Numbered from the stretch's first letter, positions 37,057-63,948 are shown. The stretch is 64,000 nt of DNA from Spirochaetota bacterium (GCA_963664815.2 CAXXHB010000003.1:352001-416000); one strand, 5' to 3'. Numbers and translations are program-made. The notes: generated by a model from the letters alone, not told the origin.

Positions 37057-38943
37057 TTGGATAGTCTGGAGAAGTATTCTATGACTAGTGAATTAAATTC
37101 AATGTCTGAAATCCGCATAACTGATCTGCGGGTTGAAGACGTAATGACGCGGAATTTCGGTGTTGTAAAACATAACGTGTCTATCAGTGATGTTGTGAAT
37201 TTGATTCTGGCAAATGACTGGGAAGAGATCTTTATAATTGATGAATCAGATAAGTTCATACATATAGTAACAAAGAAACATCTGTTGAACATTATAAAAG
37301 ACGGATTTGACCAGCAGAAACCTATCTCGCATATCTGCAATAATAAAATAATAACAACATCCCCGAAAATTTCCCTGATTGACGCCAGAAGCGTTATGCG
37401 TGAAAACAGGATAGGGCGTTTGCCTGTTGTCGACAAGGACAAAAATGTTCTTGGTGTTTTAACTGCACGCGATGTGTGTAATGGATTTTCATCAAAGCTG
37501 GAAATGCTTGGTGAACATATGTATTCAATTATGGAAAATATTTCTGAAGCCATACAGGTAATAGACTGTACCGGTGTAGTAACTTACTGGAATCATAGTG
37601 CTGAAAAAATGTTTGGTTTTAAAGCATCAATAATTTTAGGTAAAAAGCTTGCTGATTTTATTCCTGATGATCTTCCTTTGAAAGTAATAACAGATCATGA
37701 TACATATCGGGATGTTATAACTGAACTGGATAGTGGAATTGTTATTGTCAGGAATGCGGTACCTGTTATCTCCTCTGGAGGTGAGATGATAGGAGTGGTC
37801 TGTACAAGTAAGGATATCACCGTCACAAAGAATCTTATAAGTAAGATTGACCATTATCAGACGAGAGTCGTTAAACTTGAACAGATTATGGATTCACGTG
37901 AATGCACTCAGGTATCCAATGCAGAAGAAAAGTTTTATACGATAGATACAGAAACATTAACTATATTGAAACAGGCTGCCAGGGTTGCTGCTTCGAATGC
38001 CACGGTTCTTATTACAGGTGAAAGTGGTACCGGGAAAGAGCTTATGGCAAAATATATATATCGTAATAGTCAAAGGTATGATAAACCATTTATTGAAATT
38101 AATTGCGGCGCTATTCCTGAAGCATTATTCGAAAGTGAAATGTTCGGCTATGAATCCGGTGCTTTTACGGGAGCGTCTAAAAATGGTAAACCTGGAAAGT
38201 TTGAACTTGCCAAACTGGGAACTCTTTTTCTGGATGAAATAGGGGAGCTGCCGATAGAAATGCAGGCAAAATTCCTGCGCGTTCTCCAGGAGAAAAATTA
38301 TTACCGGGTAGGAGGGAAAACACCTCTGGTAAGTGATGTGAGGATTATCGCTGCGACAAACCGCGATATGAAAAAACTTGTAGAAGAGAATATATTCCGA
38401 AAGGATCTCTTTTATCGTATGAGTGTTGTTGTTCTGGAAATACCACCTTTAAGAGAAAGAAAATGCGATATCCCGGGTCTTATTCAACTGTTCATCAATC
38501 AGCTGAATCTTCAATATGGAAGATCTATCAGTGGTATTGGTTCTGATGTTATTGATTTATTGACCGATTATTCCTGGCCTGGTAATGTAAGGCAGCTTCA
38601 CAATATACTCGAAAGAATATTTATTCTCAGTGAAGATAATTATATTACATTGCAGACAGTAAGTGAATCCGGTTTAAATACAACATTATCTGGTGACAGG
38701 ATTAACATGAATAATAAACCAGTTATTTCAGAGATTGAGGAGCCAATTAACAGTAATATAAAACTTGATGAATTAATTGATACTCGAGAAAGGGAAGTAA
38801 TTCTTGAAGTTCTTAAAAACTGTGATTATAATAAATCTCAGGCAGCGCAGGTTCTGGGAATTCCCCGCAGTACGTTATATTACAAATTGAAGGTTCTTGA
38901 TATAGAGACTGATCTTGTTTCAAAAAAACTGACATTTTGTTAA
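37057..38943 (+). CDS. Sigma54-dependent transcriptional activator with CBS pair, PAS, AAA+ and Fis-HTH (start possibly 37081 or 37102)
   Basis: CBS motifs (VEDVMTR, IGRLPVVD), PAS (YWNHSAE), GESGTGKE, GAFTGA, LFLDEIGE, WPGNVRQL, AAQVLGIPRSTLYYKL. Confidence 0.95.
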   Translation: MDSLEKYSMTSELNSMSEIRITDLRVEDVMTRNFGVVKHNVSISDVVNLILANDWEEIFIIDESDKFIHIVTKKHLLNIIKDGFDQQKPISHICNNKIITTSPKISLIDARSVMRENRIGRLPVVDKDKNVLGVLTARDVCNGFSSKLEMLGEHMYSIMENISEAIQVIDCTGVVTYWNHSAEKMFGFKASIILGKKLADFIPDDLPLKVITDHDTYRDVITELDSGIVIVRNAVPVISSGGEMIGVVCTSKDITVTKNLISKIDHYQTRVVKLEQIMDSRECTQVSNAEEKFYTIDTETLTILKQAARVAASNATVLITGESGTGKELMAKYIYRNSQRYDKPFIEINCGAIPEALFESEMFGYESGAFTGASKNGKPGKFELAKLGTLFLDEIGELPIEMQAKFLRVLQEKNYYRVGGKTPLVSDVRIIAATNRDMKKLVEENIFRKDLFYRMSVVVLEIPPLRERKCDIPGLIQLFINQLNLQYGRSISGIGSDVIDLLTDYSWPGNVRQLHNILERIFILSEDNYITLQTVSESGLNTTLSGDRINMNNKPVISEIEEPINSNIKLDELIDTREREVILEVLKNCDYNKSQAAQVLGIPRSTLYYKLKVLDIETDLVSKKLTFC

Positions 38944-39005
38944 GTAATTCTACGTTTATTTTAATTAATTGCAGCTCTTTTATGTAATCCGGAGAGGAAG
39001 AAAAA

Positions 39006-40289
39006 ATGGCAACTTATCAGGAAATCAGACAAATGTGGTCAGATATAGGCATTGATCTGGATAAGCATGATATTTTTCTGGATACATTCCCCGGAGTATA
39101 TAAACGGATAATTCAGAAGCAGGAAAGAAGACCCGATAAGATAGATTATTTCAGCAGGATGGTGGCCAGTGTACATGGACGCCGTCCTTATGAACTTTTT
39201 GAACATAAACAGCAAGGGGGTAAGGTTTTTGGTGTCTATTGTGTTTATGTTCCGGATGAAATTATTCTGGCTTTAGGTGGAATCAGTACTGGTTTATGCG
39301 GTGGCGATCAGTTCTGGGTTCCCGGCGGAGAGAAATATTTGCCGGCAAATACCTGCCCATTGATTAAGTCTTCTATGGGATCACGCCTTGACAGAACCAG
39401 TCCCTTTTGCCAGATAGCAGATATCTTTATCGGGGAAGCTACATGTGACGGGAAGAAAAAAGCCTGGGAAATTCTGGCTCAGGATGTACCTATGCATATA
39501 ATGCAGGTACCACAGATGAAAAGGGAGGAGGACATCCGGAGTTTTGTCAGTGAAATACGGCAACTGATAAAAGTTTCCCAGGGTTTAACCGGTAAGCATT
39601 TAACCTTTGATGCTCTGGCCAGGAGTATAGTTACTATAAACAACAAGCGCAGAGCATTGAGCCGGCTTAATCTGACCAGACAGGCATCACCTGTACCCAT
39701 CAGCGGTAAGGACGCCCTCATGGTCATACAGGTGGCTTTCTATGATGATCCAATACGTTTTGTTGAAATGATCAATATTCTCTGTGATGAACTGGAAGAC
39801 AGGATAATTAAAAGAGAAGGTACTTTTTCTGCTGATACCCCCCGTATACTTGTGACGGGAACACCAATGGCTCTGCCAAACTGGAAACTTCATCACCTGA
39901 TAGAGACTTCCGGAGGAGTTGTTGTTTGTGAAGAAAGCTGCACAGGTACACGGTATTTTGAAAATCTTGTTGATGAAAACAGCAGTAATTTGGAAGAACA
40001 GATTATGGCTTTGGCCGATCGCTATATGAAAACCAATTGTGCATGTTTTACCCCCAATAGTGCACGGATTGAAGATATTCTTCGCTATGTTAAAGATTAT
40101 AATGCAGACGGTGTTATAGATTGCTCTCTGCAGTTCTGTGGTCTTTATTCCACAGAAAGTTATCTGCTGAGAGAGGCTTTGCGAAATGAAGGGATCCCCT
40201 TTCTTCATCTGGAAACGGATTATAGTGAACAGGATTCAGGACAGCTGCAGACGCGGATTGAGGCTTTCATGGAAATGATAAAAAAATAG
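39006..40289 (+). CDS. 2-hydroxyacyl-CoA dehydratase-family / double-cubane-cluster anaerobic reductase
   Basis: Cys motifs YCVY, GLCGG, TCPLIKS, TCDGKKK, EESCTGTRY, NCACF, LQFC; ETDYS...TRIEAFMEM. Confidence 0.85.
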   Translation: MATYQEIRQMWSDIGIDLDKHDIFLDTFPGVYKRIIQKQERRPDKIDYFSRMVASVHGRRPYELFEHKQQGGKVFGVYCVYVPDEIILALGGISTGLCGGDQFWVPGGEKYLPANTCPLIKSSMGSRLDRTSPFCQIADIFIGEATCDGKKKAWEILAQDVPMHIMQVPQMKREEDIRSFVSEIRQLIKVSQGLTGKHLTFDALARSIVTINNKRRALSRLNLTRQASPVPISGKDALMVIQVAFYDDPIRFVEMINILCDELEDRIIKREGTFSADTPRILVTGTPMALPNWKLHHLIETSGGVVVCEESCTGTRYFENLVDENSSNLEEQIMALADRYMKTNCACFTPNSARIEDILRYVKDYNADGVIDCSLQFCGLYSTESYLLREALRNEGIPFLHLETDYSEQDSGQLQTRIEAFMEMIKK

Positions 40290-40484
40290 ATTTCAAATTA
40301 GAGAGAGCTGCACTAAGAACTGTCGTACATGATTTTAATTTGAAATTTAAAGATGAAATGTTGAGAATTTAATGAGTAAGGAATTAAATAGAGGTTTGTT
40401 CATTAAGATATGCAGCTTTCTTTACTAAATAGTAAGATGTTAAGGCAGACTCATTAGAATGATTTTAATCAGGGTGGTTTATTA

Positions 40485-41048
40485 ATGACTAATGAAGGAT
40501 TGAAACACAGAAGAGCGAAAATCGAGAAATCAAAGGATATTCTTTTAATTACTGTCCCTTCAATGAAGAAAATTTCATTCATTATATTTCTGGTTGCATC
40601 TTCATGTGTCTGGATATTGGGAGAAAAGGTTGTTGTTGCATTAATTCTAAAGATGGAGGTGCTTCAGGGATTTAATATTATTTTTATGCTCTGGTTTATA
40701 GTATGGACTATAATGGGGTTCTATCTGTTTCTGAAACTGCTATGGGTGATAGCGGGAAGGGAGATAGTTACCATATTGCCAGGGACTTTGAAAATCGAAA
40801 AAGCATATATTATCGGGATTCTCAGAAGCAGAGAGTACCTGCTGGAAGGGGTTAAAGATATTCAGATTGTACCAAATGCATCATTACGACACCGAAGAGG
40901 AGTTGTGTACAATACATTTTTCAAGGGGTATATTAAATTTAATTATGGTAAAAAAACTATTGCATTTATGAGCAGTGTGGATGAGGAAGAAGCCGGATAT
41001 ATTCTTGAACAGATCAAACAATATATTTATAACAGTAATGCTGTCTGA
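40485..41048 (+). CDS. Hypothetical membrane protein (2 TM plus PH-like domain)
   Basis: 187-aa ORF with two hydrophobic helices. Confidence 0.7.
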   Translation: MTNEGLKHRRAKIEKSKDILLITVPSMKKISFIIFLVASSCVWILGEKVVVALILKMEVLQGFNIIFMLWFIVWTIMGFYLFLKLLWVIAGREIVTILPGTLKIEKAYIIGILRSREYLLEGVKDIQIVPNASLRHRRGVVYNTFFKGYIKFNYGKKTIAFMSSVDEEEAGYILEQIKQYIYNSNAV

Positions 41049-41244: not shown

Positions 41245-41279
41245 TGTCAAAAGCCTGACATATTGTCAGGTTCCTGACA
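41245..41279. promoter_or_regulatory. Tandem enhancer (UAS) candidates TGTCA-N6-TGACA
   Basis: TGTCAAAAGCCTGACA (41245-41260) and TGTCAGGTTCCTGACA (41264-41279). Confidence 0.65.
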
Positions 41280-41844: not shown

Positions 41845-41861
41845 TTGGCATGGAATCTGCG
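41845..41861 (+). promoter_or_regulatory. Sigma54 (-24/-12) promoter of the cstA-like gene
   Basis: TTGGCATGGAATCTGCG, GG-N10-GC. Confidence 0.7.
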
Positions 41862-41916
41862 AATTATAATTACAGTACTACAAATAATTAAATTCTAAAA
41901 AGGAGAGGTGCAATAT

Positions 41917-43572
41917 ATGGTACTTACTACTTCGACCCTGACAATTATCGGGTTGGCAATCTGGACTTTTGGATTTTTAATCATCAGCGGATACCTGCAG
42001 AAAACTTATCTCAAATTTAAGCCAGGCAGGAAAGTTCCGGCAGTTGAATTCCGTGATGACGTGGATTTTTATCCAGCTAATCCGGTAACTCTGTTTGGAG
42101 ATCACTGGGCTTCAATTGCCGGTGGAGCTCCTTTAGCCGGAGGAGCAACCGGTGCTATGTGGGGTTTTCTGCCCGCATTCCTTTACATCACCGTAGGTAA
42201 CATATTTCTGGGATCACCCCATGACTATGCTACAATGCATCTATCCATGCGCAAAAAAGGTATGACTATAGGGCTCCTTATCAGGGAACTTATAAGTGAA
42301 AGAGCCGGTAAGATGGGTGTTTTTCTCGGATGGTGCAGTATTGCTGCGTTTATGGCTGTTTTTTTAACAGCGCTTGCCAAGCTTTTCGTGGCTACTCCTG
42401 AAATGACACTTCCTACATTTGCGTTCACAGGCTGCGGAGTTATGATGGGTTTTCTGATTTATAAGTTCGGCTGGTCAGTAACAAGAGCGACAGCTATTGG
42501 TATAGTTATAGTTGCAATTTGTATTGTTCTGGGTATGTATCACCCGATAAGTTTACCGTTTTATGTCTGGTTTGCTATTTTCACTATTTACCCGGTTGTT
42601 TCAGCTTCTATTCCTGCCTGGATGCTGGTTGAACCGAGAAACTTTCTTAATTTCTGTTTTATGTGCGTAGGTGCGACAGCACTGTTAATCGGCTGTATCG
42701 TTGGTAATATTCCAATTCAGCTGCCGGCAGTTATAGCCACCACAAAACAGGGTCCACTATGGCCTATGCTGTTTTTAACGATCTCATGCGGAGCATTAAC
42801 CGGAATGCACTCTTTCTGGACAACGGGATATACTTCAAGACGTGTTCCTGATGAGAAATATGTACGTATTATCGGTTACGGCGGCGAAGTGCTTGAAGGT
42901 CTCACTGCATTTGTAGCCCTGGCTTCTGCAGCTGTTCTTCCGTTAGCTGTATACACTGAATATATAGCCAAGGGCTGGATATTTATACTTCAGAACGGCT
43001 ATGCACAGATTGCAGGAAGTGTATTTACTTTTATTACCTATCACTCCTGGGCTGTGTGGGGAGGATTGCTTGGAAGTATTTTTATGATCACAACGCTGGA
43101 ATCCGGCGCACGAAATATGAGAATTTTTATGCTGGAACTCTGGGGAATGTTTGTTAAACCTGTATCTCCTAATAATGGGGCGGCTAAATGGGGAGCTGCA
43201 TCTCTTTCACTTGTTGCCTGTGCTGCATTATCTCTTTCCGGAGGATGGTTCTATATCTGGATTCTATTCCCCGCGCTATCAAGTCTGCTTGCGTTGATGT
43301 CATTCATGACAGTTATCATATGGCTTAAGCTGGTTGGAAGACCTACAGGGTATTTCTGGTTTGCATTGCTAATCACAACTTTTGTCATAGCATTACCGGG
43401 AGCAGGTTACCTCAGCTATACGTATATAGTTAAAGGTATGTATCATCTTGCCTGGATACCGGCTCTTGCGATTGTACTGACAGCATTTTTCTATGTTGAC
43501 TTCTTCAAGAAAAAGAATTCAATAACTGCTCAGGAAATTGAAATAGCTTCAAAAGTTGAAGAAGCTGTTTAA
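41917..43572 (+). CDS. CstA-family (carbon starvation A; peptide/carboxylate:H+) transporter, divergent
   Basis: PA....DDVDFYP, LFGDHWASIAG, PHDY, LFLTISCGALTGMHS, IGYGG; ATG 41917 is better spaced from AGGAG than GTG 41908. Confidence 0.85.
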   Translation: MVLTTSTLTIIGLAIWTFGFLIISGYLQKTYLKFKPGRKVPAVEFRDDVDFYPANPVTLFGDHWASIAGGAPLAGGATGAMWGFLPAFLYITVGNIFLGSPHDYATMHLSMRKKGMTIGLLIRELISERAGKMGVFLGWCSIAAFMAVFLTALAKLFVATPEMTLPTFAFTGCGVMMGFLIYKFGWSVTRATAIGIVIVAICIVLGMYHPISLPFYVWFAIFTIYPVVSASIPAWMLVEPRNFLNFCFMCVGATALLIGCIVGNIPIQLPAVIATTKQGPLWPMLFLTISCGALTGMHSFWTTGYTSRRVPDEKYVRIIGYGGEVLEGLTAFVALASAAVLPLAVYTEYIAKGWIFILQNGYAQIAGSVFTFITYHSWAVWGGLLGSIFMITTLESGARNMRIFMLELWGMFVKPVSPNNGAAKWGAASLSLVACAALSLSGGWFYIWILFPALSSLLALMSFMTVIIWLKLVGRPTGYFWFALLITTFVIALPGAGYLSYTYIVKGMYHLAWIPALAIVLTAFFYVDFFKKKNSITAQEIEIASKVEEAV

Positions 43573-43652: not shown

Positions 43653-43690
43653 CGATAACCGGGTGAAGTCTTCTTTACCCGGTTTTATCG
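43653..43690 (+). terminator. Rho-independent terminator after the cstA-like gene
   Basis: CGATAACCGGGTGAAG-TCTT-CTTTACCCGGTTTTATCG. Confidence 0.65.
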
Positions 43691-43925: not shown

Positions 43926-44192
43926 ATGCAAAATGGTGAATTAACACAGGTTCAAAAACTTTATCTTGAAGCTTTAAAAGACGGTCCAAAAGAATCAGGT
44001 CAACTAACGACTATTGTGCGAAATAGGCTTACTCAGATTAAAAGCGGGAATAATCCTGTAGGAGCGACAGGGAGAGCTCAGGCAGTGCTGGATGAGCTTG
44101 AAAAAGACGGTTATATTGTTGTAATATCGAAGAAGCTTTTCGGTGGTAAAAAATATGACATTACAGATAAAGGTAAAGGAATTATTGGTTAG
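43926..44192 (+). CDS. Small winged-helix (PadR-like) protein
   Basis: AGGAGG RBS; L.ALKDGP....L, LDELEKDGYI, YDITDKGK. Confidence 0.75.
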   Translation: MQNGELTQVQKLYLEALKDGPKESGQLTTIVRNRLTQIKSGNNPVGATGRAQAVLDELEKDGYIVVISKKLFGGKKYDITDKGKGIIG

Positions 44193-44198
44193 GACAGC

Positions 44199-45167
44199 AT
44201 GACAAAAATGCATCAGGCGAAATTAGAGATCCTTAATAACCGCTTGGATCGTCTGGAAAAAGACGTTCAGAGAATACAGGCTTATAATGGCAAGGGGATG
44301 AAGGCTGATAATTCGCTCAATGATGTATACTCCAGTTTTGTAAACATGGGAGAAATCCTTAAGCAGACTCAGGCAGAGAATAACAACAAAACAGATGAAT
44401 TAAATGATATATGTGTAAGGTATAAAGATCTGTTTGCTAAATTTGAGTTCGTTGCAGATGAATTCAATTCGCAGAACAAAGGTATGGTTCTCGTAAGTAA
44501 AAGAGCCATACCTGAATTTTTTTATAATATAACCATGCGCTATCGCAGGTTCTGGAATATATATGAGAAGATTGCAACCTTCTTTGGAGTTGGAATTATC
44601 GCTTTCACTTTAATCATATTGACATACTTTTCTGCTTATGGTCACTTCCCGTTGTTACAACAAAACAGTGGAGGAACACAGGCGATAAAAGCTTTTGGGT
44701 TTATAGCTGGTCTTGTTATAGGGCTATGTGTGCATGAATTTGCTCATGGAGTTGTTCTTGCTAATAATGGCATTAAAATCAAACAGGTAGGTGTGATGGC
44801 AGGTTCTATGGTCGGAGGATTTATAGAGGCTGAAGAGACTACTTTTTTCCAGGCTGACCGGAGAGTACATTTAAGATTTAATGCATCGAGTATCGGAACC
44901 AATGCTTTGCTGGCTGTATTATTGGGATTAATTGCGATGTTAACTTCTTCCGGACTTTTATTATACCTGTCATTAGGAAATCTGTTTTTTGGCATAATAA
45001 ATTCATTTCCGATTCTCCCTCTGGACGGGGGATGGGTTTATGAAGATTTAATTAATATTTACCTGACAAATAAAATCATCAGAAAGATACTACTATATGC
45101 AAGATTTGCCTTTGCCATACTTTGGCTAATCCTTTTTACTTTTTCTGTTCTCTCGTATCATTCATAG
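44199..45167 (+). CDS. Site-2 protease (M50) family membrane metalloprotease with coiled-coil N-terminus
   Basis: HEFAHG zinc motif and NSFPILPLDGG motif. Confidence 0.9.
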   Translation: MTKMHQAKLEILNNRLDRLEKDVQRIQAYNGKGMKADNSLNDVYSSFVNMGEILKQTQAENNNKTDELNDICVRYKDLFAKFEFVADEFNSQNKGMVLVSKRAIPEFFYNITMRYRRFWNIYEKIATFFGVGIIAFTLIILTYFSAYGHFPLLQQNSGGTQAIKAFGFIAGLVIGLCVHEFAHGVVLANNGIKIKQVGVMAGSMVGGFIEAEETTFFQADRRVHLRFNASSIGTNALLAVLLGLIAMLTSSGLLLYLSLGNLFFGIINSFPILPLDGGWVYEDLINIYLTNKIIRKILLYARFAFAILWLILFTFSVLSYHS

Positions 45168-45524: not shown

Positions 45525-45728
45525 TTATTTAAAATTGAAACCGGATGCATTATCAACTTCCTTTTTCATATCATCTTCTTTATCTGTTTTAGTTGCTGAA
45601 GCATCAGTTTTCTTTTCTTCAGCCGCAACCGGAGAAGACTTATCTGCTTTTTTGCAGCTTGTGAAAGCAAAACCTGACGTTAATACCAAAGTAAGTACAC
45701 ACATTACAGCGAGAATCTCTTTCTTCAT
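45525..45728 (-). CDS. Small lipoprotein
   Basis: AGGAG RBS; MKKEILAVM...FTSC lipobox; charged mature part. Confidence 0.75.
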   Translation of the reverse strand: MKKEILAVMCVLTLVLTSGFAFTSCKKADKSSPVAAEEKKTDASATKTDKEDDMKKEVDNASGFNFK

Positions 45729-46048: not shown

Positions 46049-46064
46049 TGTCAACTTTCTGACG
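46049..46064. promoter_or_regulatory. UAS candidate upstream of the hdr operon
   Basis: TGTCAACTTTCTGACG, about 160 bp upstream of the sigma54 promoter. Confidence 0.6.
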
Positions 46065-46220: not shown

Positions 46221-46237
46221 TTGGCATGATTATTGCA
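46221..46237 (+). promoter_or_regulatory. Sigma54 promoter of the hdr operon
   Basis: TTGGCATGATTATTGCA, near-consensus GG-N10-GC. Confidence 0.8.
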
Positions 46238-48878: not shown

Positions 48879-48879
48879 T

Positions 48880-52308: not shown

Positions 52309-52459
52309 TATATTGGCAGGCAGCATAATAACCATGTGAAACATGATTATTTTCTGCCTGTTTAAAATAAGGTAAAGAATTTAATTCAGTATTTATATTC
52401 AGTCACTTGGAACCAGTAGTAGAAAGAGTAAAAATAAATTTAATCAAAGGAGGTTGAAA

Positions 52460-54081: not shown

Positions 54082-54155
54082 AAAAATATTGCTGTAATTT
54101 ATATTTTATTGTTTAGCAGGATTTAAAATTTTAATGTGGTGGAATGGTGATTTTT

Positions 54156-55805
54156 ATGAGTAAAAAAGTACTTATAGTCGGAGGTGTTGCAGGTGGAGCC
54201 AGCACTGCTGCGAGACTCAGGAGACTTGACGAAAATGCTGAGATTATTATGTTTGAACGTGGTGAATTTATTTCATTTGCCAACTGCGGGCTTCCATATT
54301 ATGTAGGGGGTGCTATTGTAAACAGGAAAAGCCTTTTCGTACAGACTCCTCAGTCAATGAAAAAACGATTTAACCTGGACGTTCGTATACACAGCGAAGT
54401 CGTAAAAATTTTTCCTTCTGAAAAGAAGGTTGAAGTCCGCAGCATTCAGAAAGGGGAGAATTACTTTGAGACCTATGATTACCTTGTACTTTCTCCGGGA
54501 GCGCAGCCCGTTTTACCGGACATAAAAGGACTGAATCTTCCAAATGTATTCAGTGTCCGCAATGTTCCTGACAGTGATGCAATAAAGCAGTTTATCGATG
54601 CTCATAAGCCTGCAACAGCTGTGATAATAGGCGGAGGTTTTATAGGTATGGAAATGGCAGATGTGCTTCATCAGTGCGGAGTAAAGACAACTGTTGTTGA
54701 AGCGGCAGACCGGATTATGAATCTCTGGCTTGACGGGGAAATGGCAACAACAGTACAGCAGTATATAAATAAGAAAGGAATAGAGCTTGTTTTAAATGAT
54801 AAAGTTGCGGTTCTCGAGGGTTCTTCTGGAGTTGAGAGGGCAGTTCTTGAAAGCGGCAGAGAAATTTCTGCGGAGATTGTAATTCTCGGTACAGGAGTAA
54901 AACCTGAGGTATGGCTTGCAGAAGATGCCGGACTTGTCATTGGCTCCACGGGCGGGATACACGTGGATGAATATCTGCGGACCTCAAATGAATTTATTTA
55001 TGCAGTTGGCGATGCCATTGAAGTAAAAAATATGATTACGGATAAATATGAACTGATGTTTCTTGCAGGTCCTGCCAACAGGCAGGGGAGGCTTGCGGCA
55101 GATAATATTGCAGGAAGACCATCTAAATATTCCGGTTCACAGGGAACAGCAATAATAAAAATAATAGATATGACTGTGGCTGTAACCGGTGCGAACGGGA
55201 AAAGTCTCAGTAATTCAGGAATACCTTTTCTCGCGTGTCATATACATCCCGCTTCTCATGCGGCATACTATCCCGGCGGAACGCAGATGTCGATCAAACT
55301 TTTTTTCACCCCTGATGAAGGAAAAATCCTCGGGGCACAGATTGTGGGATTTGACGGAGTTGACAAGCGCATTGATGTTTTTGCAACTGCTGTCAGGGCT
55401 GGAATGACAGTGTTTGATCTCACTGAGCTTGAGCTGGCCTATGCACCCCCATTTTCATCGGCAAAGGATCCAGTGAATATGGCCGGGTATGTGGCCTCAA
55501 ACATATTGCTTAAGGATATTGAAGTGGTTTACTGGAAAGATGTTCCGGCACTTGTTTCAGGAGGTGCATTTCTCCTTGACGTTCGCATGCCGTCAGAAGT
55601 AGAGGCTGGGGCGGTTAATGGTTCGGTTAATATACCTGTTGATGATCTGAGAAACCGCATTGAAGAGATACCTAAAGACAAGGTGATCCTGGTTTACTGC
55701 CAGGTGGGTCTGCGTAGCTATATCTCTAATCGTATATTAAAGCAGAAAGGATTTATTGTAAAGAATATCAGCGGAGGATACAAGTCCTTCCAATCACAAA
55801 AGTAA
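54156..55805 (+). CDS. CoA-disulfide reductase with C-terminal rhodanese (CoADR-RHD/Npsr-like)
   Basis: IVGGVAGGAS, SFANCGLPY, IIGGGFIG, ELAYAPPFSSAKDP, rhodanese LLDVR...YCQVGLR; ATG 54156 preferred. Confidence 0.92.
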   Translation: MSKKVLIVGGVAGGASTAARLRRLDENAEIIMFERGEFISFANCGLPYYVGGAIVNRKSLFVQTPQSMKKRFNLDVRIHSEVVKIFPSEKKVEVRSIQKGENYFETYDYLVLSPGAQPVLPDIKGLNLPNVFSVRNVPDSDAIKQFIDAHKPATAVIIGGGFIGMEMADVLHQCGVKTTVVEAADRIMNLWLDGEMATTVQQYINKKGIELVLNDKVAVLEGSSGVERAVLESGREISAEIVILGTGVKPEVWLAEDAGLVIGSTGGIHVDEYLRTSNEFIYAVGDAIEVKNMITDKYELMFLAGPANRQGRLAADNIAGRPSKYSGSQGTAIIKIIDMTVAVTGANGKSLSNSGIPFLACHIHPASHAAYYPGGTQMSIKLFFTPDEGKILGAQIVGFDGVDKRIDVFATAVRAGMTVFDLTELELAYAPPFSSAKDPVNMAGYVASNILLKDIEVVYWKDVPALVSGGAFLLDVRMPSEVEAGAVNGSVNIPVDDLRNRIEEIPKDKVILVYCQVGLRSYISNRILKQKGFIVKNISGGYKSFQSQK

Positions 55806-55918: not shown

Positions 55919-57433
55919 ATGAAAAAAATTATTATTTCCACGATTTTCCTTTCTTTAATATTGATTTCACTTCCTAATACAATTTATTTGTACGCAAGTA
56001 ATACACAGGCTGCAGTAAAAATTCAGGATAATGTTAATGTTGAAGATAATGTAAAGAATGGAACTGTTGGTACGAGTATTTCTGAACATAGTAATCCTCA
56101 TATCAATGCTAAAAATTTAAGTCTTTTATGGATAATTCCATTTATTGGTATACTCCTGTCAATTGCCCTTTTACCACTTTTTACGCCGGACTTCTGGCAC
56201 CACCATTATGGCAAAGTGTCGATCTTCTGGTGGCTAACATTTTTTGTGGCGTTTTCTGTTAAATTTGGAATAGGTATCGGTTCCTACTACCTTCTGGAAG
56301 TATATCTGATGGAGTTTATTCCATTTATAACTCTGCTCCTTGCCCTTTTTACTGTTGCCGGAGGCATTCAGCTTAAAGGGGAGCTTGCAGGAACGCCAAA
56401 AGTAAACACTGTCATGATCCTTATAGGAGGTATACTTGCAAGTTTTATGGGTACAACCGGAGCAGCAATGGTAATGATACGACCTGTTCTGAAGGCAAAC
56501 GAATGGAGAGCAAACAGAGCGCATATAGTTGTTTTTGTAATTTTCGTTGTTGCCAATGTAGGGGGTGGACTTACCCCTCTCGGTGATCCTCCTCTATTTC
56601 TTGGTTTCCTTAAAGGAGTTGATTTTTTCTGGACAGTGAAGCATATGTTTCCACTTGTTGCTTTTACAATCGGGATACTCCTCGTAATTTTCTTTATAAT
56701 GGATACATATTATTACAGTAAAGAAAAAAATAAACCGGTAAAAGATGCTGCCGGGGAAAAGTTAAAACTCATTGGTATACCCAATATGCTTTTAATTCCA
56801 TTAATAATTGGAGCTGTCATAATATCAAGCATCGACATGGGAACTGCCTTCACTGTTCATTTCGTTGCAGTGCAATTATCATCAATCTTTCAGGTTATGC
56901 TTCTTCTTGTCATAACTATCATTTCGCTCAGGGTATCAAACCCGGATATAAGAGAAGCGAACGGATTCAGCTGGGAGCCGATCAGGGAAGTCTCAAAACT
57001 TTTCGCAACAATTTTCATGACTATGGTTACACCGATTGCTATGCTCAGAGCCGGAGTTGACGGACCTATGGGGATGGTTGTAAGAGGAGTTGCCGATAGC
57101 AGCGGTAATTTTATCAATTCTCATTTTTTCTGGGCGGCAGGTGCCCTTTCAAGCTTTCTTGATAATGCCCCAACATATCTTGTTTTCTTTAATACTGCAG
57201 GGGGCAGCCCTGTTGATCTGATGGGTGTTCATGCCGGAACGCTTATTGCAATAAGTGCCGGTGCAGTTTTCATGGGGGCAAATACATATATCGGCAATGC
57301 CCCTAATTTTATGACAAAATCAATCGCGGAAGAGTCTGGTGTGGCAATGCCGAGTTTTTTCGGGTATATGTTTAAATATTCAATACCGATCCTTATTCCG
57401 GTATTTATTCTGGTAACATATATATTTTTTTAA
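55919..57433 (+). CDS. IT-superfamily transporter (putative Na+/H+ antiporter or carboxylate transporter)
   Basis: GTTGAAM, VANVGGGLTPLGDPPLFLG, SSFLDNAPTY, TYIGNAPNF. Confidence 0.85.
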   Translation: MKKIIISTIFLSLILISLPNTIYLYASNTQAAVKIQDNVNVEDNVKNGTVGTSISEHSNPHINAKNLSLLWIIPFIGILLSIALLPLFTPDFWHHHYGKVSIFWWLTFFVAFSVKFGIGIGSYYLLEVYLMEFIPFITLLLALFTVAGGIQLKGELAGTPKVNTVMILIGGILASFMGTTGAAMVMIRPVLKANEWRANRAHIVVFVIFVVANVGGGLTPLGDPPLFLGFLKGVDFFWTVKHMFPLVAFTIGILLVIFFIMDTYYYSKEKNKPVKDAAGEKLKLIGIPNMLLIPLIIGAVIISSIDMGTAFTVHFVAVQLSSIFQVMLLLVITIISLRVSNPDIREANGFSWEPIREVSKLFATIFMTMVTPIAMLRAGVDGPMGMVVRGVADSSGNFINSHFFWAAGALSSFLDNAPTYLVFFNTAGGSPVDLMGVHAGTLIAISAGAVFMGANTYIGNAPNFMTKSIAEESGVAMPSFFGYMFKYSIPILIPVFILVTYIFF

Positions 57434-57615: not shown

Positions 57616-57648
57616 AAAAAAGAAGGGCTGCCTTTTAGGCAGCCCTTT
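57616..57648 (-). terminator. Rho-independent terminator of the thiolase-like/OB-fold operon
   Basis: AAGGGCTGCC-TTTTA-GGCAGCCCTT with an A-run on its left (U-tract on the minus strand). Confidence 0.75.
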
Positions 57649-57664
57649 GTAGATGATATTAATC

Positions 57665-58093
57665 TTAATCCAGCTCGAATCCCATGATAGTACATCCTTT
57701 TTCATCATCATCAAGCCATACGACATGCACAGGGGCATCATAAGGAACTTTTTCAATATTGCTATAGTTTATCAGTCGGCCGAACACACGCGGCCCTTCG
57801 TCCAGGGTGACAGAGCATATGGCGAGGGGCAGGTATTCCTTAATAGCCTTATGGAATGGGAAGCGGCCTTCCACGAAGGAGTAAATTTTGCCATGACCGG
57901 AAACTTCTTTCCAGTCAACATCGGCGCTGCCACAGTGCTGGCAGATAAAACCCCCCGGCCAGTAATACTTGCCGCAGCTCTTGCAGTGGGGCAGTAAAAA
58001 CTTATGCTCATCATGAGCAGTCTTGTAAAACAGTTCGTTGTCAGAGCTGGTTCTGAGGTCAAAAGGCAGATTTACTTTTAATGCATTAGCCAT
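57665..58093 (-). CDS. DUF35/ChsH2-like Zn-ribbon plus OB-fold acyl-CoA-binding protein
   Basis: CKSCG...P...CQHCG, VSGHGKIYSF, VTLDEGPR. Confidence 0.9.
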   Translation of the reverse strand: MANALKVNLPFDLRTSSDNELFYKTAHDEHKFLLPHCKSCGKYYWPGGFICQHCGSADVDWKEVSGHGKIYSFVEGRFPFHKAIKEYLPLAICSVTLDEGPRVFGRLINYSNIEKVPYDAPVHVVWLDDDEKGCTIMGFELD

Positions 58094-58095
58094 TG

Positions 58096-59289
58096 TTATT
58101 CCCCCCTTTCTACAATTATAGTTTCGTTGCTCTGATAATAACCGCCGTTATCAGAGATAAGCATGAATTCAGGAAGCTTTGTGCCCGGTATTACCCCTAA
58201 CTGACGATCTCCGCAGCGCTTAGACATCTGCATCACCGCCTCAGCCATCGGAGTAAGGCCCATATAATAACCTTCAGAGAGCAGACCGCCTCCAGTGTTT
58301 ACTGGGAATGCGCCGCCGGGCCCGATATTTTCCACTGTCATGAAGTCGCGGGATTTATTCTTGTCGAAGAACCCATAGTCACCCAGAGTTGCCTCAACTG
58401 TGTATGTGTAGCAATCGTATATCTGGGCTGCACCTATGTCTTTTGGCTCTAAGCCGGCCATCTGGAAAGCTTCACGTCCGGCTACAGCGGCACTGCTTGC
58501 GGGATCACCCGGTGTAAGCTGCCAGCCTTTGGAGGTGTCATTGGCAGCACCGAAACTGCGGATCTTTACGGGCGGATTCTTAAGGTGTTTAGCCCGTTCT
58601 GTGGTGGTGATGATAACAGCCCGGCCGCCGTCAGTTGATGCCGTGGCATCTAAGGCACGGAATGGCCATGAAAGAAACGGTGTAGCCAGGTAGTCATCCT
58701 TTGTCAAAGGCTTGCTGTACTGAATGGCCTTGGGATTCAGATTAGCCCATTTGCGGTGTGCAATAGCTATATCTCCCCATACATCGGGCCCTGTCCCATG
58801 TTCATGCATGGCACGACTGGCGAAAATTGCATAATTTGTGAAAGCAGAAATATTACCGTAAGCGCCGTACTCATCATAGGGCTTGTTGCTTAACAGGTCA
58901 ATTTCGTCTGTCCATGTACGGCGGCCGGTTCTGCCACTCTCGGCAAATACAATCAGTACATATTTACATGTACCGTTTTCAAGAACACCAATCGCTTTAT
59001 TGATGTTGGTGCGGTAGCAGTAAGCTTCCTGGCTTAAGAATTTCGGGCGTATGCCCAGACTGGAGGTTATTACGTTGGCTGTATGGTGAAAAGCGTCTCC
59101 AGACAAAATTGGAAAATCACGGTAAAGAATCAGACCATCTATATCATCCTTCTTTAATCCCGCATCATTAATGGCGTTCATGGTCGCTTCGAGATAAAAA
59201 CTCGCTGCGGAACGTCCAGAAACTACTCCCTGCGGTGTATAACCGACACCGGCAAAGGCATATTTGTTTCTTAATCCTGTACGATCCAT
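58096..59289 (-). CDS. Thiolase-fold protein, SCP-x/Ltp2-like (possible retro-aldolase)
   Basis: AGVGYT, DIDGL, NPKA, TDGGRA, IYDCYT, VNTGGGLLSEGYYMG (no GHP). Confidence 0.85.
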   Translation of the reverse strand: MDRTGLRNKYAFAGVGYTPQGVVSGRSAASFYLEATMNAINDAGLKKDDIDGLILYRDFPILSGDAFHHTANVITSSLGIRPKFLSQEAYCYRTNINKAIGVLENGTCKYVLIVFAESGRTGRRTWTDEIDLLSNKPYDEYGAYGNISAFTNYAIFASRAMHEHGTGPDVWGDIAIAHRKWANLNPKAIQYSKPLTKDDYLATPFLSWPFRALDATASTDGGRAVIITTTERAKHLKNPPVKIRSFGAANDTSKGWQLTPGDPASSAAVAGREAFQMAGLEPKDIGAAQIYDCYTYTVEATLGDYGFFDKNKSRDFMTVENIGPGGAFPVNTGGGLLSEGYYMGLTPMAEAVMQMSKRCGDRQLGVIPGTKLPEFMLISDNGGYYQSNETIIVERGE

Positions 59290-59476: not shown

Positions 59477-59493
59477 TGCATTATTCGTGCCAG
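59477..59493 (-). promoter_or_regulatory. Sigma54 promoter of the thiolase-like/DUF35 operon
   Basis: Minus strand CTGGCACGAATAATGCA, GG-N10-GC. Confidence 0.78.
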
Positions 59494-59655: not shown

Positions 59656-59686
59656 TGTCAAAAAACTGACGTCAGTAATATTGACA
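59656..59686. promoter_or_regulatory. UAS candidates upstream of the thiolase-like operon
   Basis: TGTCAAAAAACTGACG (59656-59671) overlapping CGTCA-N7-TGACA (59670-59686), about 165 bp from the promoter. Confidence 0.6.
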
Positions 59687-60204: not shown

Positions 60205-60213
60205 GCGTAACTG

Positions 60214-61452
60214 TTACATCTTTTCCAGTATATGTATACACATGGAGGCCTCTTCAACTCCGATATTGCCGCCGCCGTTTTCTGCAAGACCAATTCTGGC
60301 ACCTGCGACCTGTCGTGGACCTGCGTCACCCCGTAGCTGCAGAACTAATTCATGGATCTGGGCAAGGCCTGATGCCCCTATGGGATGCCCTCTGCATTCC
60401 AGTCCGCCGCTTGTGTTTACAGGTTTTTTCCCTCCGAGTGTGGTTGCACCTGATTCTGCATATGGGCCGCCTTCGCCGGTTTTGCAGAATCCCATTGATT
60501 CGCACTGGTGTAGTTCACCCCAGCTGGTGGCGTCATGCAGCTCGGCAAAATCTATATCATCCGGCCCGAGTCCGGCCGTTTCATATGCCTGTTTAGAAAG
60601 TCTTTCGCCAATATCAGGTGCATCAAGGGGACGGTTCTCACCCTGTCCGAGTACCGAAGCGCGTATTTTTACAGGGCGTGCTCCGATAAGTTTTTTAAGA
60701 AACCTGTCCGAACAGATAATTACAGCTGCTGCACCATCTCCAAGAGGTGCACACATAGCACGGGTGAGAGGCCATGCGATTTTTTTATCAGCAAGAACCT
60801 CTTCAACAGACATTTTCTGCTGATACTGTGAGTATGGATTAAGAGAACCATGCAGGTGGTTTTTTGAACAGATTACAGCAAGTTGTTTCTGTGTCGATCC
60901 GAAACGGTCCATATGCCAGCGGGCACCCATGGCATATGCATCCATAAAAATGCTTCGGCCTTCCCCGGGCCTGGAGCCGTCGTCAGGGATTGATACTTTC
61001 AATGTTTTTCCGATTTCTTCCATCATTTTTAACTGATTTAACATATTCCCGACATCCATACAGGATGCGTAGGCTCCCATGGCCACGTTTTTATCAGGGT
61101 GTGATATTTTTTCCGATCCGACTGCTATTGCAGCTTCATACATTCCGGCACGTATTCCAGTGTATGCAAGATGAAGTGCTGTTGAGGCTCCGGCACAGGC
61201 ATTTTCAACATTTGTTACAGGTATTTTATCAATTCCCATTCCCCGGAACACAACCTGACCCCGTATGGAATGCTGCCGCTCATACATCCCCCAGAAAGTA
61301 TTGGAAAAAAATCCCGCCTGAATGTCTTTTTTTGTAAGGTTAGCATCTGCAAGAGCCAGATCAATTACCTTTTCCGCCATTGATTTTACAGTATCATCAG
61401 GATATTTATTAAAGCGTATCATTCCTGATCCGATGATGTATACATCATTCAT
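60214..61452 (-). CDS. SCP2-type thiolase (acetyl-CoA acyltransferase family)
   Basis: VENACAGAS, AELHDA, GHPIGASG, ENGGG. Confidence 0.92.
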   Translation of the reverse strand: MNDVYIIGSGMIRFNKYPDDTVKSMAEKVIDLALADANLTKKDIQAGFFSNTFWGMYERQHSIRGQVVFRGMGIDKIPVTNVENACAGASTALHLAYTGIRAGMYEAAIAVGSEKISHPDKNVAMGAYASCMDVGNMLNQLKMMEEIGKTLKVSIPDDGSRPGEGRSIFMDAYAMGARWHMDRFGSTQKQLAVICSKNHLHGSLNPYSQYQQKMSVEEVLADKKIAWPLTRAMCAPLGDGAAAVIICSDRFLKKLIGARPVKIRASVLGQGENRPLDAPDIGERLSKQAYETAGLGPDDIDFAELHDATSWGELHQCESMGFCKTGEGGPYAESGATTLGGKKPVNTSGGLECRGHPIGASGLAQIHELVLQLRGDAGPRQVAGARIGLAENGGGNIGVEEASMCIHILEKM

Positions 61453-61488
61453 TATTAAACCCTCCGATTATAAATAATTTAAAATACA

Positions 61489-63948
61489 TTATTCTATCCA
61501 ATCCACCTGAGGGAATTCCCTCTCGACAGGTTTGTCTATCTGCACTGCAGGATACCCTATAACAATTGATGTTGCCACAAGATCGTATGGCCATTTAATA
61601 CCCAGTTTTTTCCTGAGTTTTTTGCTCATATTTACCGGTTCTGTCCCGAATCCGGCATAACAGGTTCCAAGACCAAGAGAATGTGCCGCGAGTACCATGT
61701 TCTGGCAGCACATGCCGGTGCTGAATACAGGTGTTGATATACCCATGTGATGCACAAGGACATAGATTACTGTTGTCGCACCGAAAAATATATCCATTTG
61801 CTTTTCACCGAACTGTGGTGTAAGTAGCGCCTGTATAGCCACCATCGGCCGCTGGTCAATACCGTCCGGACGCAGAAAAGCCGCGCTGTTTTTCACCAGT
61901 TTCCGAAACGGACCTCTGCCCTGGTAAATGCGGGTAACCATTCCGAGAGTCCTTGTGCAATCTCTGCTCAATTCATCAAGGAGTGCACGATCCCTTATAA
62001 CAATAAATTTCCATGGTTGTGAATTTCCTGCCGAAGGTGAAAAGCGCCCTGCCTCAAGTATACGGTGGACTAACTCCCGGGGGACTGCTTCATCTGTAAA
62101 GACACGGTTGGATCTTCGGCGGTAAATAATACGCTCTGTAGAGGTAATTTTATTTTCAATAACTGCGAAAGCTGGAGGATTCTCCTGCATGAATGGGTTT
62201 GGATATCCCTTTCCTTTTTCAGGTATACCAAGTGCGGTATTTGACCAGCGGCCTTTTTCAATCCTGTAGTAATTCGGAAATGTAAGAGCATCTTGTGGAC
62301 ATATTGCCTCGCAGTTGTGGCATGCAAGGCACACTTTTCCGAAATATTCAGATCTGCTGCCGGTAAATTCAGATTTATAATTGCCGCAGGAGATGCATCT
62401 TCCAGATTCGCTTGATACCTGGTCGGGCGTAAGACTTCCGTCAACAGGGTTGCTTATGCTTTTAAGGCGCTCAACAAAGCCCGGTCTTACTGCACAATTT
62501 CGTTCAGTATTTTTATAGCCGTATAGAGGTACATTACGGAAAGATATTTCCTTTTTTAAAGGAACTGAATATTTTTTTCCGGAAAGATAAGCGTTTATGG
62601 AAAACGCGGCATTTTTACCGGCACCTATTGCGGCTGTTACTGTCGCGGACCCGTTTAAAACATCACCACCTGCGAATACTCCGGCATGTTTAGTCATCCA
62701 TGTGTCATCTGCAATAAGACGGCCATTTTCAAAAATCTCTTCAAAGCCGCTGGGTTCCACCTCCTGACCTATGGCATAAACAGCCAGATCTGCCTCCATG
62801 TCGAATTCTCCACCTTCAGCCGGCAAAGGGCGGCTTCTGCCGGAATCATCCTCTTCATATAAACGCATCCGCGTGCATTTTATTTTTAATGGGCCGTTTC
62901 CGGTATGGGTGATGTTAAGCGGCGCCGAGAGAAATTCAATTTTTACACCTTCCTCAAGTGCATCGCTGATATCTTTATCGAATGCAGGCATCTCTTTTCT
63001 TGAGCGCCGGTAAAGGATTGTAGCTTCAGCACCGCACCTTCTTGCCGTTCGCGCTACATCTATGGCGGTGTTTCCGCCTCCGATTACTATTACATTCCGC
63101 GCATCCGGCATCTCCTCTCCTTCACGGATATTCCTTAAAAAATCGAGTCCGGACAGAACCCGGCCGAATATTGGGAAATCAGTTTTTTTACTATTTGCGG
63201 TTCCGATAGCCAAATAGACTGCATTATAGTCTGACATGAGCGTTTTTAATGATATATCACTTCCTGCTTTAACCCCGAGTTTCAGTGTAACACCCATGTC
63301 TGTTATACGCTGATATTCGCCGTCAATCAGATCAGAAGAGAGCCGAAATGCAGGTATAGCATATCTGAGCATTCCCCCGGGTTTCAGATCAGCCTCATAA
63401 ACAGTAACATCGTGGCCCATCCGTGTAAGCTGATAAGCGCAGGACATGCCAGATGGCCCGGAGCCCACAATGGCAATTTGTTTTCCGCTTTTTTTCTCAG
63501 GTTTAATGAAGGATTTTTTTTCTTTGATTCCCCACTCTCCGATGAAACGTTCAATCTCATTAATATTAACAGATTCATCAAGGTTTTGACGGTTGCATCC
63601 CCCCTCGCAGGGGTGAGGACATACCATTCCTGTAATGGCCGGGAACGGGTTAGCATCCGTGATTATATCCCACACCTCTTCATATGTTCCTCCATCAGCC
63701 AGCACCTTCATATACTTTCTCACATCCACCCCTGATGGACAATTATGCTGGCAGGCCGGCTCCTGGTTGCCGGAGTATGCCCGGGATACAAGTGAAAGTG
63801 TCTGGCACGGGCATTGCTGAACACAAAGCCCGCATCCGATACATTTTTCATCATCAAGAATAATACTGAAAGGTGTTTTGACTACCGGCGGATCGCTTAA
63901 TATTCTGAATTTCTGAGTAAAACTTCCGTTCATAAAGTTATTCTCCAT
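61489..63948 (-). CDS. Ferredoxin / GltD-like NAD(P)-FAD oxidoreductase / nitroreductase fusion
   Basis: CIGCGLCVQQCP; PACQHNCP...VCPHPCE; IVGSGPSG; VIGGGNTAID; CLACHNCEAICP; RRRSNR...SPSAGNSQPW...AAHSLGLGTC. Confidence 0.88.
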   Translation of the reverse strand: MENNFMNGSFTQKFRILSDPPVVKTPFSIILDDEKCIGCGLCVQQCPCQTLSLVSRAYSGNQEPACQHNCPSGVDVRKYMKVLADGGTYEEVWDIITDANPFPAITGMVCPHPCEGGCNRQNLDESVNINEIERFIGEWGIKEKKSFIKPEKKSGKQIAIVGSGPSGMSCAYQLTRMGHDVTVYEADLKPGGMLRYAIPAFRLSSDLIDGEYQRITDMGVTLKLGVKAGSDISLKTLMSDYNAVYLAIGTANSKKTDFPIFGRVLSGLDFLRNIREGEEMPDARNVIVIGGGNTAIDVARTARRCGAEATILYRRSRKEMPAFDKDISDALEEGVKIEFLSAPLNITHTGNGPLKIKCTRMRLYEEDDSGRSRPLPAEGGEFDMEADLAVYAIGQEVEPSGFEEIFENGRLIADDTWMTKHAGVFAGGDVLNGSATVTAAIGAGKNAAFSINAYLSGKKYSVPLKKEISFRNVPLYGYKNTERNCAVRPGFVERLKSISNPVDGSLTPDQVSSESGRCISCGNYKSEFTGSRSEYFGKVCLACHNCEAICPQDALTFPNYYRIEKGRWSNTALGIPEKGKGYPNPFMQENPPAFAVIENKITSTERIIYRRRSNRVFTDEAVPRELVHRILEAGRFSPSAGNSQPWKFIVIRDRALLDELSRDCTRTLGMVTRIYQGRGPFRKLVKNSAAFLRPDGIDQRPMVAIQALLTPQFGEKQMDIFFGATTVIYVLVHHMGISTPVFSTGMCCQNMVLAAHSLGLGTCYAGFGTEPVNMSKKLRKKLGIKWPYDLVATSIVIGYPAVQIDKPVEREFPQVDWIE

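Follow-up and report, generated by a model that had tools for sequence, protein, structure and literature searches.

A stretch of 64,000 nucleotides from the genome of a Spirochaetota bacterium (GCA_963664815.2, CAXXHB010000003.1:352001-416000; the window, with positions counted from its first letter) contains at 37057-63948 a gene cluster that combines an Hdr-like complex, two gene pairs of the coenzyme A (CoA)-transferase fold (gctA1-gctB1 and gctA2-gctB2), transporters and a CoA-disulfide reductase-rhodanese (CoADR-RHD). Judged from comparative sequence evidence, the alpha-type protein of the second pair, GctA2, is a genuine selenoprotein with the alpha fold of CoA-transferases, and its residue 105 is selenocysteine (Sec), encoded by the TGA at 52766-52768. 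In two phyla, genetic linkage joins GctA2B2 to an Hdr-like complex, a true CoA-transferase of the Gct type and an anion transporter, and often to a CoA-persulfide reductase. As a best guess, which is put forward tentatively, GctA2B2 may perform the reductive cleavage of a C-S bond in a thio-substituted acyl-CoA.

The GctA-like open reading frame (ORF) at 52454-53275 (+) contains a single in-frame TGA, and its true start is perhaps the ATG at 52460. The codon aligned with this TGA was compared across 79 genomic loci drawn from one-per-species genomes: it is TGA in 47 loci and TGC or TGT in 31, and one sequence ends before reaching it. When the read-through protein was searched against a database, 120 relatives were listed. 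Cys stands in place of the TGA in every one of the 41 full-length relatives; the remaining 79 are C-terminal fragments of 150-174 amino acids that start at the first Met past the TGA. A selenocysteine insertion sequence (SECIS) hairpin (GCUCUC-CGUGC-GGGAGC, 6 bp) is located at 52784-52800 (+), 18-34 nt past the UGA. Within an alignment of 47 distinct sequences (the window and 46 loci, with locus L042 dropped as identical to L041) 99.6% of the 282 cells in the SECIS columns are paired, a level that 0 out of 500 shuffles reach. Compensatory changes alter 15 cells on both sides, at two pairs on synonymous third positions, and slid registers pair merely 31-68%. The same columns are 47% paired in the Cys loci, and the full hairpin is present in none of the 30 loci (out of 31 Cys loci) that were caught by the pattern.

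The Sec machinery of the host genome scores above the model cut-offs throughout (selB 324 bits, selA 474 bits, tRNA-Sec 70 bits, selD 370 bits), and selA and selB adjoin each other. The original prediction had listed GctA2 as a Sec candidate, and the aligned codons, the SECIS hairpin and the Sec machinery together turn this candidate into a real selenoprotein. The selD match (G000:C3:2287335-2288261, -) runs end to end through the model with one in-frame TGA, so that SelD is probably a selenoprotein in the host as well. Two contigs of one delta-proteobacterial metagenome-assembled genome (MAG), L041 and L042, carry two GctA2(Sec)-GctB2 copies with identical sequence over the 48 nt past the TGA; the copy on L041 adjoins an NfnAB-like pair, a peroxiredoxin and a DsbA-like gene and not hdr. 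Selenoproteins with the CoA-transferase fold did not turn up in term searches that covered the main text and the catalogue tables of two reviews (2022 and 2026) and passages of the Haft 2022 preprint, deep-Sep and the 2016 ISME survey, and a full-text literature search returned nothing relevant on any selenoprotein of this fold.

GctA2 and its partner GctB2 (GctB-like, 53277-54014, +) are both matched by PF01144 and have PDB matches of the CoA_trans fold, and a profile built from 26 GctA2 family members matches 1poi_A with 181 bits. The description of the second pair as GctAB-like in the original prediction is thus right for the fold and probably does not extend to CoA-transferase function, as GctB2 has no catalytic Glu. 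All 68 GctB2-type sequences carry Leu or Ile at the aligned position of the catalytic Glu (Leu in the window), and all 27 GctB1-type sequences carry Glu. Because this residue is missing, GctA2B2 is probably not a CoA-transferase, and from the alignments it can be described as a CoA-transferase-fold heterodimer that has lost the transferase catalytic Glu. On the alpha side, the Cys/Sec105 column is invariant in 26 out of 26 GctA2 family sequences. In the profile alignment C/U105 falls on the 'MDEGM' Glu of 6co6 and 6con, with Ala there in the variant 6coj; we take this Glu to be the catalytic Glu105 of the ring hydrolase IpdA, a residue that reportedly has a catalytic role. The residue aligned with Sec105 is the Gln of 'SQD' in true GctA and a Gly in AibA.

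Three characterized systems of this fold allow GctA2B2 to be placed. The two-subunit CoA_trans fold is common to GctA2B2 and to GctAB of Acidaminococcus fermentans (1poi), but in GctA2B2 the catalytic Glu of the beta subunit is replaced by Leu/Ile and the Gln of 'SQD' in the alpha subunit by Sec/Cys. The other pair of the window, GctA1 (50528-51514, +) and GctB1 (51514-52308, +), is a true member of the GctAB type: GctB1 matches 1poi_B with 144 bits and the Glu of its FTEGG motif aligns with the VESG Glu of GctB, and because this catalytic Glu is retained GctA1B1 is an ordinary acid-activating family-I CoA-transferase. IpdAB, the cholesterol ring-cleaving hydrolase (6co6, 6coj, 6con), is like GctA2B2 a Gct-fold heterodimer without the beta-Glu and acts on acyl-CoA; it differs in its alpha Glu, in place of which GctA2 has Sec or Cys, in its origin from aerobic steroid degraders and in having no redox partners. 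Among solved structures, GctB2 is matched best by the 3-methylglutaconyl-CoA decarboxylase AibA/AibB (5mzw-5n03; 67 bits). As described in PMC7756340, AibAB is a Gct-fold enzyme in which the beta-Glu is replaced, with Cys56 of AibB at the beta position. GctB2 has Leu there (aligned with the variant position of 5n00_B and 5n03_D) and so does not share the AibB cysteine. GctA2B2 represents a third repurposing of the Gct scaffold, following IpdAB and AibAB, with a selenol or thiol beside the bound thioester as its distinctive feature.

The gene neighborhood of GctA2 was surveyed by tblastn of the 21 window proteins against the 79 loci, with at least 45% identity required for a counterpart of the peripheral genes and of the activator. 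The conserved core consists of hdrC1B1AC2B2, GctA1B1, a transporter and GctA2(Sec)B2, with or without CoADR-RHD. GctB2 is adjacent to GctA2 in all 47 TGA loci. At least three of the five hdr genes are present in 22, and GctA1B1 in 21, of the 33 TGA loci that have at least 6 kb of upstream sequence, and CoADR-RHD is located directly downstream of GctB2 in 11 out of 39 TGA loci with at least 2 kb downstream. A major facilitator superfamily (MFS) anion transporter lies between the two Gct pairs in 20 loci, and hdr abuts GctA2 without an intervening GctA1B1 in L009, L030 and L033. Homologues of the window's sigma-54 activator (49-58% identity) are found directly upstream of hdrC1 in 10 out of 47 TGA loci. 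The hosts belong to the Syntrophomonadaceae, Syntrophobacteraceae, Syntrophaceae, Pelotomaculum, Desulfosporosinus and Desulfovibrio, and the core therefore crosses phyla (Bacillota and Desulfobacterota). This arrangement exceeds chance.

Other parts of the cluster recur more rarely. The genes cstA, hyp88 and M50 occur together in 3 out of 47 TGA loci and in one Cys locus (L022, L037, L052 and L064; five genomes counting the window), and the cstA homologues inside these four clusters show 76-81% identity. In 2 out of 47 TGA loci (L025, 85-86% identity; L040, 77-78%) the thlY-DUF35 pair immediately precedes GctA2(Sec)-GctB2-CoADR and has the same orientation. Cys-form pairs beside a CoADR gene include those of Desnuesiella massiliensis (L065) and of a Desulfovibrio MAG (L052). 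Loci without hdr and CoADR have AhpC, DsbA, an NfnAB-like pair, cysteine-desulfurase-like genes or ferredoxins nearby. Genes for short-chain acyl-CoA dehydrogenases stand beside the cluster in 12 loci, and 4 loci have Etf genes downstream. The neighbors that encode MFS transporters and acyl-CoA dehydrogenases are generic family matches below cut-offs and give no clue to the substrate. The double-cubane reductase (DCCP), CitMHS_2, the SCP2-type thiolase and the Fd-GltD-nitroreductase have a tblastn counterpart in 0 out of 79 loci. The conservation expected around the Sec gene in the original prediction thus holds for the core and fails for these four genes.

The predicted control elements wire cstA, the hdr-gct operon and thlY-DUF35 into one sigma-54 regulon in the host genome. 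A sigma-54 -24/-12 promoter (TGGCATGATTATTGCA, 46222-46237, +) is located ~55 bp upstream of hdrC1, and 10 of the 18 loci examined have a match at 10-11 out of 11 positions in the corresponding location ahead of hdrC1. A second -24/-12 promoter (TGGCACGAATAATGCA, 59477-59492, -) lies upstream of thlY, and a weak sigma-54-like -24/-12 element (8 out of 11 positions; 41846-41861, +) upstream of cstA. The window furthermore contains eight copies of the motif TGTCA-N6/7-TGAC, compared with 0.52 expected and 0 out of 100 shuffles that reach eight. Seven of the eight are located upstream of cstA, hdrC1 and thlY, at 165-195 bp before the two strong promoters: they include two overlapping palindromic TGTCA-N6-TGAC sites upstream of cstA (41245-41279), which are candidate activator-binding sites, a TGTCA-N6-TGAC site 173 bp upstream of the -24 element of hdrC1 (46049-46063, +), and, 165-195 bp ahead of the thlY promoter, a pair of neighboring TGTCA-N6/7-TGAC sites (59656-59686). 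The other loci contain scattered single matches, and since the motif is not conserved elsewhere it supports co-regulation in the host genome only. A comparable position is otherwise seen only in a Syntrophomonas MAG, where a palindromic TGTCA-N6-TGAC (L046:9828-9843) precedes a Cys-form GctA2 by ~160 bp.

The regulator of this regulon is likely the activator encoded at 37057-38943 (+), a CBS-PAS-AAA+(sigma-54)-HTH protein (Pfam) of PrdR-like architecture that is matched end to end (residues 24-613) by the PrdR model NF041552, at 583 bits and below the cut-off of 795. Strong hairpin terminators are located after cstA (12-bp stem, 43657-43684) and after DUF35 (11 pairs followed by a T run, 57623-57647, -); the terminator scan found no strong terminator that interrupts the genes from hdrC1 to CitMHS_2. 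An exact sigma-54 consensus, TGGCACGGGCATTGC, is present at 63803-63817 (+) inside the 5' part of the minus-strand Fd-GltD-nitroreductase gene and is probably fortuitous, because no nearby plus-strand gene follows.

The hdr genes upstream of the Gct pairs are arranged as hdrC1 (46290-46883), hdrB1 (46876-47835), hdrA (47832-48878, 348 amino acids), hdrC2 (48859-49476) and hdrB2 (49476-50351), all on the plus strand (Pfam, NCBIfam). The translations of both hdrB genes contain two CCG-type Cys motifs each, and HdrA has a full-length match to 6tjr (152 bits) and matches methanogen HdrA cores with 198 bits. The complex shares with the sHdr system (hdrC1B1AHC2B2) the gene order, a short HdrA of ~340 amino acids that is covered end to end by 6tjr, and two paralogues each of HdrB and HdrC. 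It differs from sHdr in that the small 'H' gene is absent, the hosts are strict anaerobes or syntrophs, and the partners are CoA-transferase-fold enzymes.

CoADR-RHD (54144-55805, +; Pfam, NCBIfam) has full-length PDB matches to 3icr (611 bits), 3nta (573 bits) and 8a56, a 'CoA-persulfide reductase' (522 bits). Its active-site residue is Cys and not Sec (SFANCGLPY), and the Cys of the rhodanese loop lies in YCQVGLRS. No difference from the known CoADR-RHD, Npsr and CoA-persulfide reductase proteins is seen at the sequence level; what is new is the genomic partnership. Among solved structures, the thiolase-fold protein ThlY (58096-59289, -) is matched best by 4u4e and by the Ltp2 aldolase 6ok1; two Tyr of ThlY align with residues 294 and 344 of the 6ok1 chain, which are presumably the catalytic residues of that enzyme. 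A DUF35 protein (57665-58093, -; PF01796 and PF12172) is encoded by the adjacent gene, and the two genes thereby combine the thiolase fold, the two Tyr and the adjacent DUF35 of the Ltp2-ChsH2(DUF35) aldolase. On this basis thlY-DUF35 is a putative C-C cleaving pair of the aldolase or thiolase type.

Distant Cys-form relatives of GctA2 (39-47% identity) place the family in a second context. A CoA-disulfide reductase gene is found directly upstream in 19 out of 26 distant Cys loci, and one of these reductases scores 610 bits against NF007123 (cut-off 458). In 11-14 of the distant Cys loci the CoADR-GctA(Cys)-GctB trio is embedded in a microcompartment locus that encodes MtnK (326 bits, cut-off 275), MtnA (406 bits, cut-off 279), a class II aldolase, an acylating aldehyde dehydrogenase, PTAC, BMC and EutN shell proteins and Fe-ADH. 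These loci (L061-L087, e.g., L065:210-12561 and L061:144-11600), from Clostridia and other Bacillota, look like a dihydroxyacetone phosphate (DHAP)-shunt microcompartment; they also contain a solute-binding-like protein, DeoR and sometimes Dak1/Dak2. The literature search returned nothing on a DHAP-shunt microcompartment, and it gave 0 occurrences each for methylthioacetyl-CoA, mercaptoacetyl-CoA and thioglycolyl-CoA. Under the established chemistry of the DHAP shunt, the microcompartment locus would produce (methylthio)acetaldehyde and from it (methylthio)acetyl-CoA, in which the thioether is alpha to the thioester.

Under the favored, tentative reading of reductive C-S cleavage, a thio-substituted carboxylate, for example a 3-thia acid of the alkylthio- or mercapto-acetate type or a relative of it, would be imported and converted to its CoA ester by GctA1B1. 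The selenolate of GctA2B2 would then attack next to the thioester and the C-S bond would be cut reductively, which would give an acyl-CoA enolate (e.g., of acetyl-CoA) and a Se-S adduct. CoASH would resolve this adduct to a CoA mixed disulfide or persulfide, which the Hdr-like complex and/or CoADR-RHD would reduce to a thiol or H2S, and thlY-DUF35 would trim the carbon skeleton by an accessory C-C cleavage where needed. Such a pathway would also be an electron sink for hydrogen-limited syntrophs. We infer an organosulfur substrate with indirect support, which comes from the full-length homologue of CoA-persulfide reductase, the thiol-redox neighbors and the distant Cys homologues with CoA-disulfide reductase in loci of the methylthioribose shunt.

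Two known systems resemble parts of this scheme. The Stickland glycine and D-proline reductases together with PrdR share with it a Sec nucleophile by an activated carbonyl, the logic of an anaerobic electron sink and, through the activator of the window, a PrdR-like regulator. They differ from GctA2B2 in having unrelated folds and in activation by a pyruvoyl group instead of a CoA thioester, and the activator remains below the PrdR cut-off. In the 2-ketopropyl-CoM oxidoreductase/carboxylase a thiolate attacks the thioether sulfur next to a carbonyl, giving an enolate and a mixed disulfide that is reduced by NADPH; unlike GctA2B2, this enzyme is a single disulfide-oxidoreductase protein of another fold and works without Sec or a CoA ester.

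Several observations weigh against reductive C-S cleavage. IpdAB and AibAB, the two characterized Gct-fold enzymes without the beta-Glu, are not redox enzymes. CoADR-RHD is adjacent in merely 11 out of 39 TGA loci, and no hdr is seen in 11 of the 33 TGA loci that extend far enough upstream. CCG domains also occur in proteins for sulfur-free substrates such as lactate, glycolate and succinate, and the best NCBIfam match of HdrB2 is SdhE, a fumarate-reductase subunit. LbpA, DsrE, TusA and lipoate-ligase are not among the 21 proteins of 37057-63948 as searched with Pfam (the rest of the genome being unsearched). A simple alpha-C-S cleavage does not account for thlY-DUF35. The argument from the microcompartment loci depends on homologues with just 39-47% identity, and the DHAP shunt also processes 5-deoxyribose to plain acetaldehyde.

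The strongest alternative, which is rather unlikely in our view, is that GctA2B2 works without redox chemistry, as a lyase, hydrolase or decarboxylase comparable to IpdAB and AibAB, and acts on a sulfur-free acyl-CoA, e.g., a dicarboxylyl-CoA or a cyclic beta-keto-acyl-CoA. Its Cys/Sec would serve as nucleophile or general acid-base, the Hdr-like complex would be an electron-transfer module for a dehydrogenation and CoADR-RHD would be incidental. A hydrolase and a decarboxylase are the closest solved relatives without the beta-Glu, short-chain acyl-CoA dehydrogenase genes (12 loci) and Etf genes (4 loci) accompany the cluster, the Ltp2-like thlY-DUF35 pair belongs to a family known from C-C cleavage, and HdrB2 has the fumarate-reductase subunit SdhE as its best named match. 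However, proteins hardly ever employ Sec except for reactions that require redox chemistry or a strong nucleophile, CoA-disulfide/-persulfide reductase is the most persistent neighbor of the family (19 out of 26 distant and 11 out of 39 close loci), and thiol-redox genes stand beside GctA2B2 in loci without hdr. A beta-elimination (3-thiopropionyl-CoA to acryloyl-CoA), prompted by AcrC-like dehydrogenase neighbors, was also considered and ranked below the redox reading, as it needs neither Sec nor a reductase.

Still less probable is a role in CoA-thiol maintenance, in which GctA2B2 with CoADR (and Hdr) would bind CoA persulfide, CoA disulfide and mixed disulfides and hand them to the reductases, with no dedicated carbon substrate. 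Such a role would account for the CoADR partners in both family branches, for a fold that binds CoA and for the AhpC, DsbA and DJ-1 neighbors in some loci, and the microcompartment context depends on a private CoA pool. The close branch of the family is, however, consistently joined to a true CoA-transferase (GctA1B1, 21 out of 33) and to an organic-anion transporter (MFS in 20 loci, or CstA), and it has a substrate-type PAS/CBS sigma-54 activator; because these three accompany the close branch, catabolism of an imported acid is suggested.

It is very unlikely that the 27-kb stretch as a whole is a chance juxtaposition of unrelated units without a common function. Four peripheral genes have no counterpart near GctA2 in the 79 loci, two of them (the SCP2 thiolase and the Fd-GltD-nitroreductase) belong to an operon associated with an AraC regulator, and CitMHS_2 is the sole part common to same-genus genomes at the DNA level (75-79% identity). 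Against this stand the synteny of the core, which spans Bacillota and Desulfobacterota, and the common sigma-54 promoters and upstream motif of three transcription units in the window, and chance juxtaposition is refuted for the core and stands for the four peripheral genes alone. That the TGA of GctA2 is a true stop in a split or decaying gene, of which public gene callers emit solely the 150-174-amino-acid C-terminal piece, can be dismissed as extremely improbable, given that the same TGA is found in 47 loci of different families with both halves of GctA2 conserved, that a covarying hairpin follows it, that every full-length homologue has Cys in its place and that the genome has complete Sec machinery.

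The gene unit was evidently acquired horizontally by the host genome. A GctA2 orthologue is present in 0 out of 7 same-genus genomes (73-97% complete), and the best matches in 23 further relatives are paralogues with at most 37% identity. The closest GctA2 homologues (79% identity) are encoded by Syntrophomonadaceae MAGs, and other proteins of the island reach up to 92% identity (GctB1). The island has a G+C content of 0.40-0.455, up from 0.31-0.36 over the first 18 kb of the window. A DNA comparison with four same-genus genomes returned solely CitMHS_2 (75-79% identity) and short paralogous matches, and the borders of the island are not defined by this comparison because the four genomes are too diverged.

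All 21 genes that the original prediction named are present at 37057-63948 and the domains it assigned to them were borne out by Pfam and NCBIfam. Downstream of the activator gene, the plus strand encodes DCCP (39006-40289; NF040772, 473 bits, cut-off 350), a 187-amino-acid membrane protein (40485-41048), the CstA-family transporter (41908-43572; Pfam) and, together at 43926-45167 (Pfam), hyp88, a protein of 88 amino acids, and an M50-like membrane metalloprotease; the membrane protein, hyp88 and the metalloprotease are additions to the earlier gene list. DCCP starts 63 bp past the activator gene, and the window has no gene for an ATP-dependent activase. The M50-like protein has an N-terminal coiled-coil-like part and a HEFAHG motif, and hyp88 is without any family match. 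The 1.1-kb gap between M50 and hdrC1 contains a minus-strand ORF of 67 amino acids (45525-45728) with a lipoprotein-type signal (…SGFAFTSC). The CitMHS_2 transporter of the IT superfamily (55919-57433, +) follows CoADR-RHD. An Rfam scan of 36000-64000 found no family that reaches its gathering score.

The SCP2-type thiolase (60214-61452, -) and the Fd-GltD-nitroreductase fusion (61489-63948, -) had been suspected to be a separate unit, and they indeed form the tail of a minus-strand operon that extends past the window beside an AraC regulator. The part beyond the window (L095 = G000:C3:415001-433000, 1120-9098) contains two acyl-CoA-dehydrogenase-like genes in overlapping frames, an acetyl-CoA-hydrolase-type CoA-transferase and two SDRs; the AraC-type regulator (537 amino acids) is divergent from the operon, which represents a second, unrelated acyl-CoA pathway. 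Upstream of the island, a plus-strand cluster at 24902-35329 encodes a Plug-domain outer-membrane receptor, an FmdE-like protein, a methyltransferase, an ABC ATPase, an FecCD permease, two periplasmic binding proteins, a radical-SAM protein and an unassigned protein of 379 amino acids, and may be a unit for the uptake and processing of a metal or corrinoid.

GctA2 adds to the selenoproteins a family with an unexpected fold, which was not found in the catalogues checked, and public data truncate it (79 of the 120 relatives listed are fragments). The Hdr architecture of the sulfur-oxidizer type gains a new partner in strict anaerobes, and the question of which compounds such complexes reduce or oxidize becomes testable with a defined two-protein partner; the literature search returned nothing on this Hdr/Gct cluster in Syntrophomonas. 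In its most far-reaching form, which is possible and on balance doubtful, the proposal is that GctA2B2 founds a new enzyme class, a Sec/Cys CoA-dependent reductase of the CoA-transferase fold that would cut C-S bonds in thio-substituted acyl-CoAs and would be re-reduced in beta-oxidizing syntrophs by a dedicated Hdr-like complex, and that the Cys homologue with CoA-disulfide reductase in the microcompartment would be the missing methanethiol-releasing step of anaerobic methylthioribose (DHAP-shunt) salvage. If this is true, 3-thia acids that are otherwise non-degradable would be converted to acetyl-CoA and a thiol or H2S, in an electron sink that is perhaps coupled to energy conservation. C-S cleavage by GctA2B2 would add a route of organosulfur turnover to syntrophic consortia in digesters, peat and aquifers and a branch of methionine-sulfur salvage to the Clostridia, both hitherto unknown.

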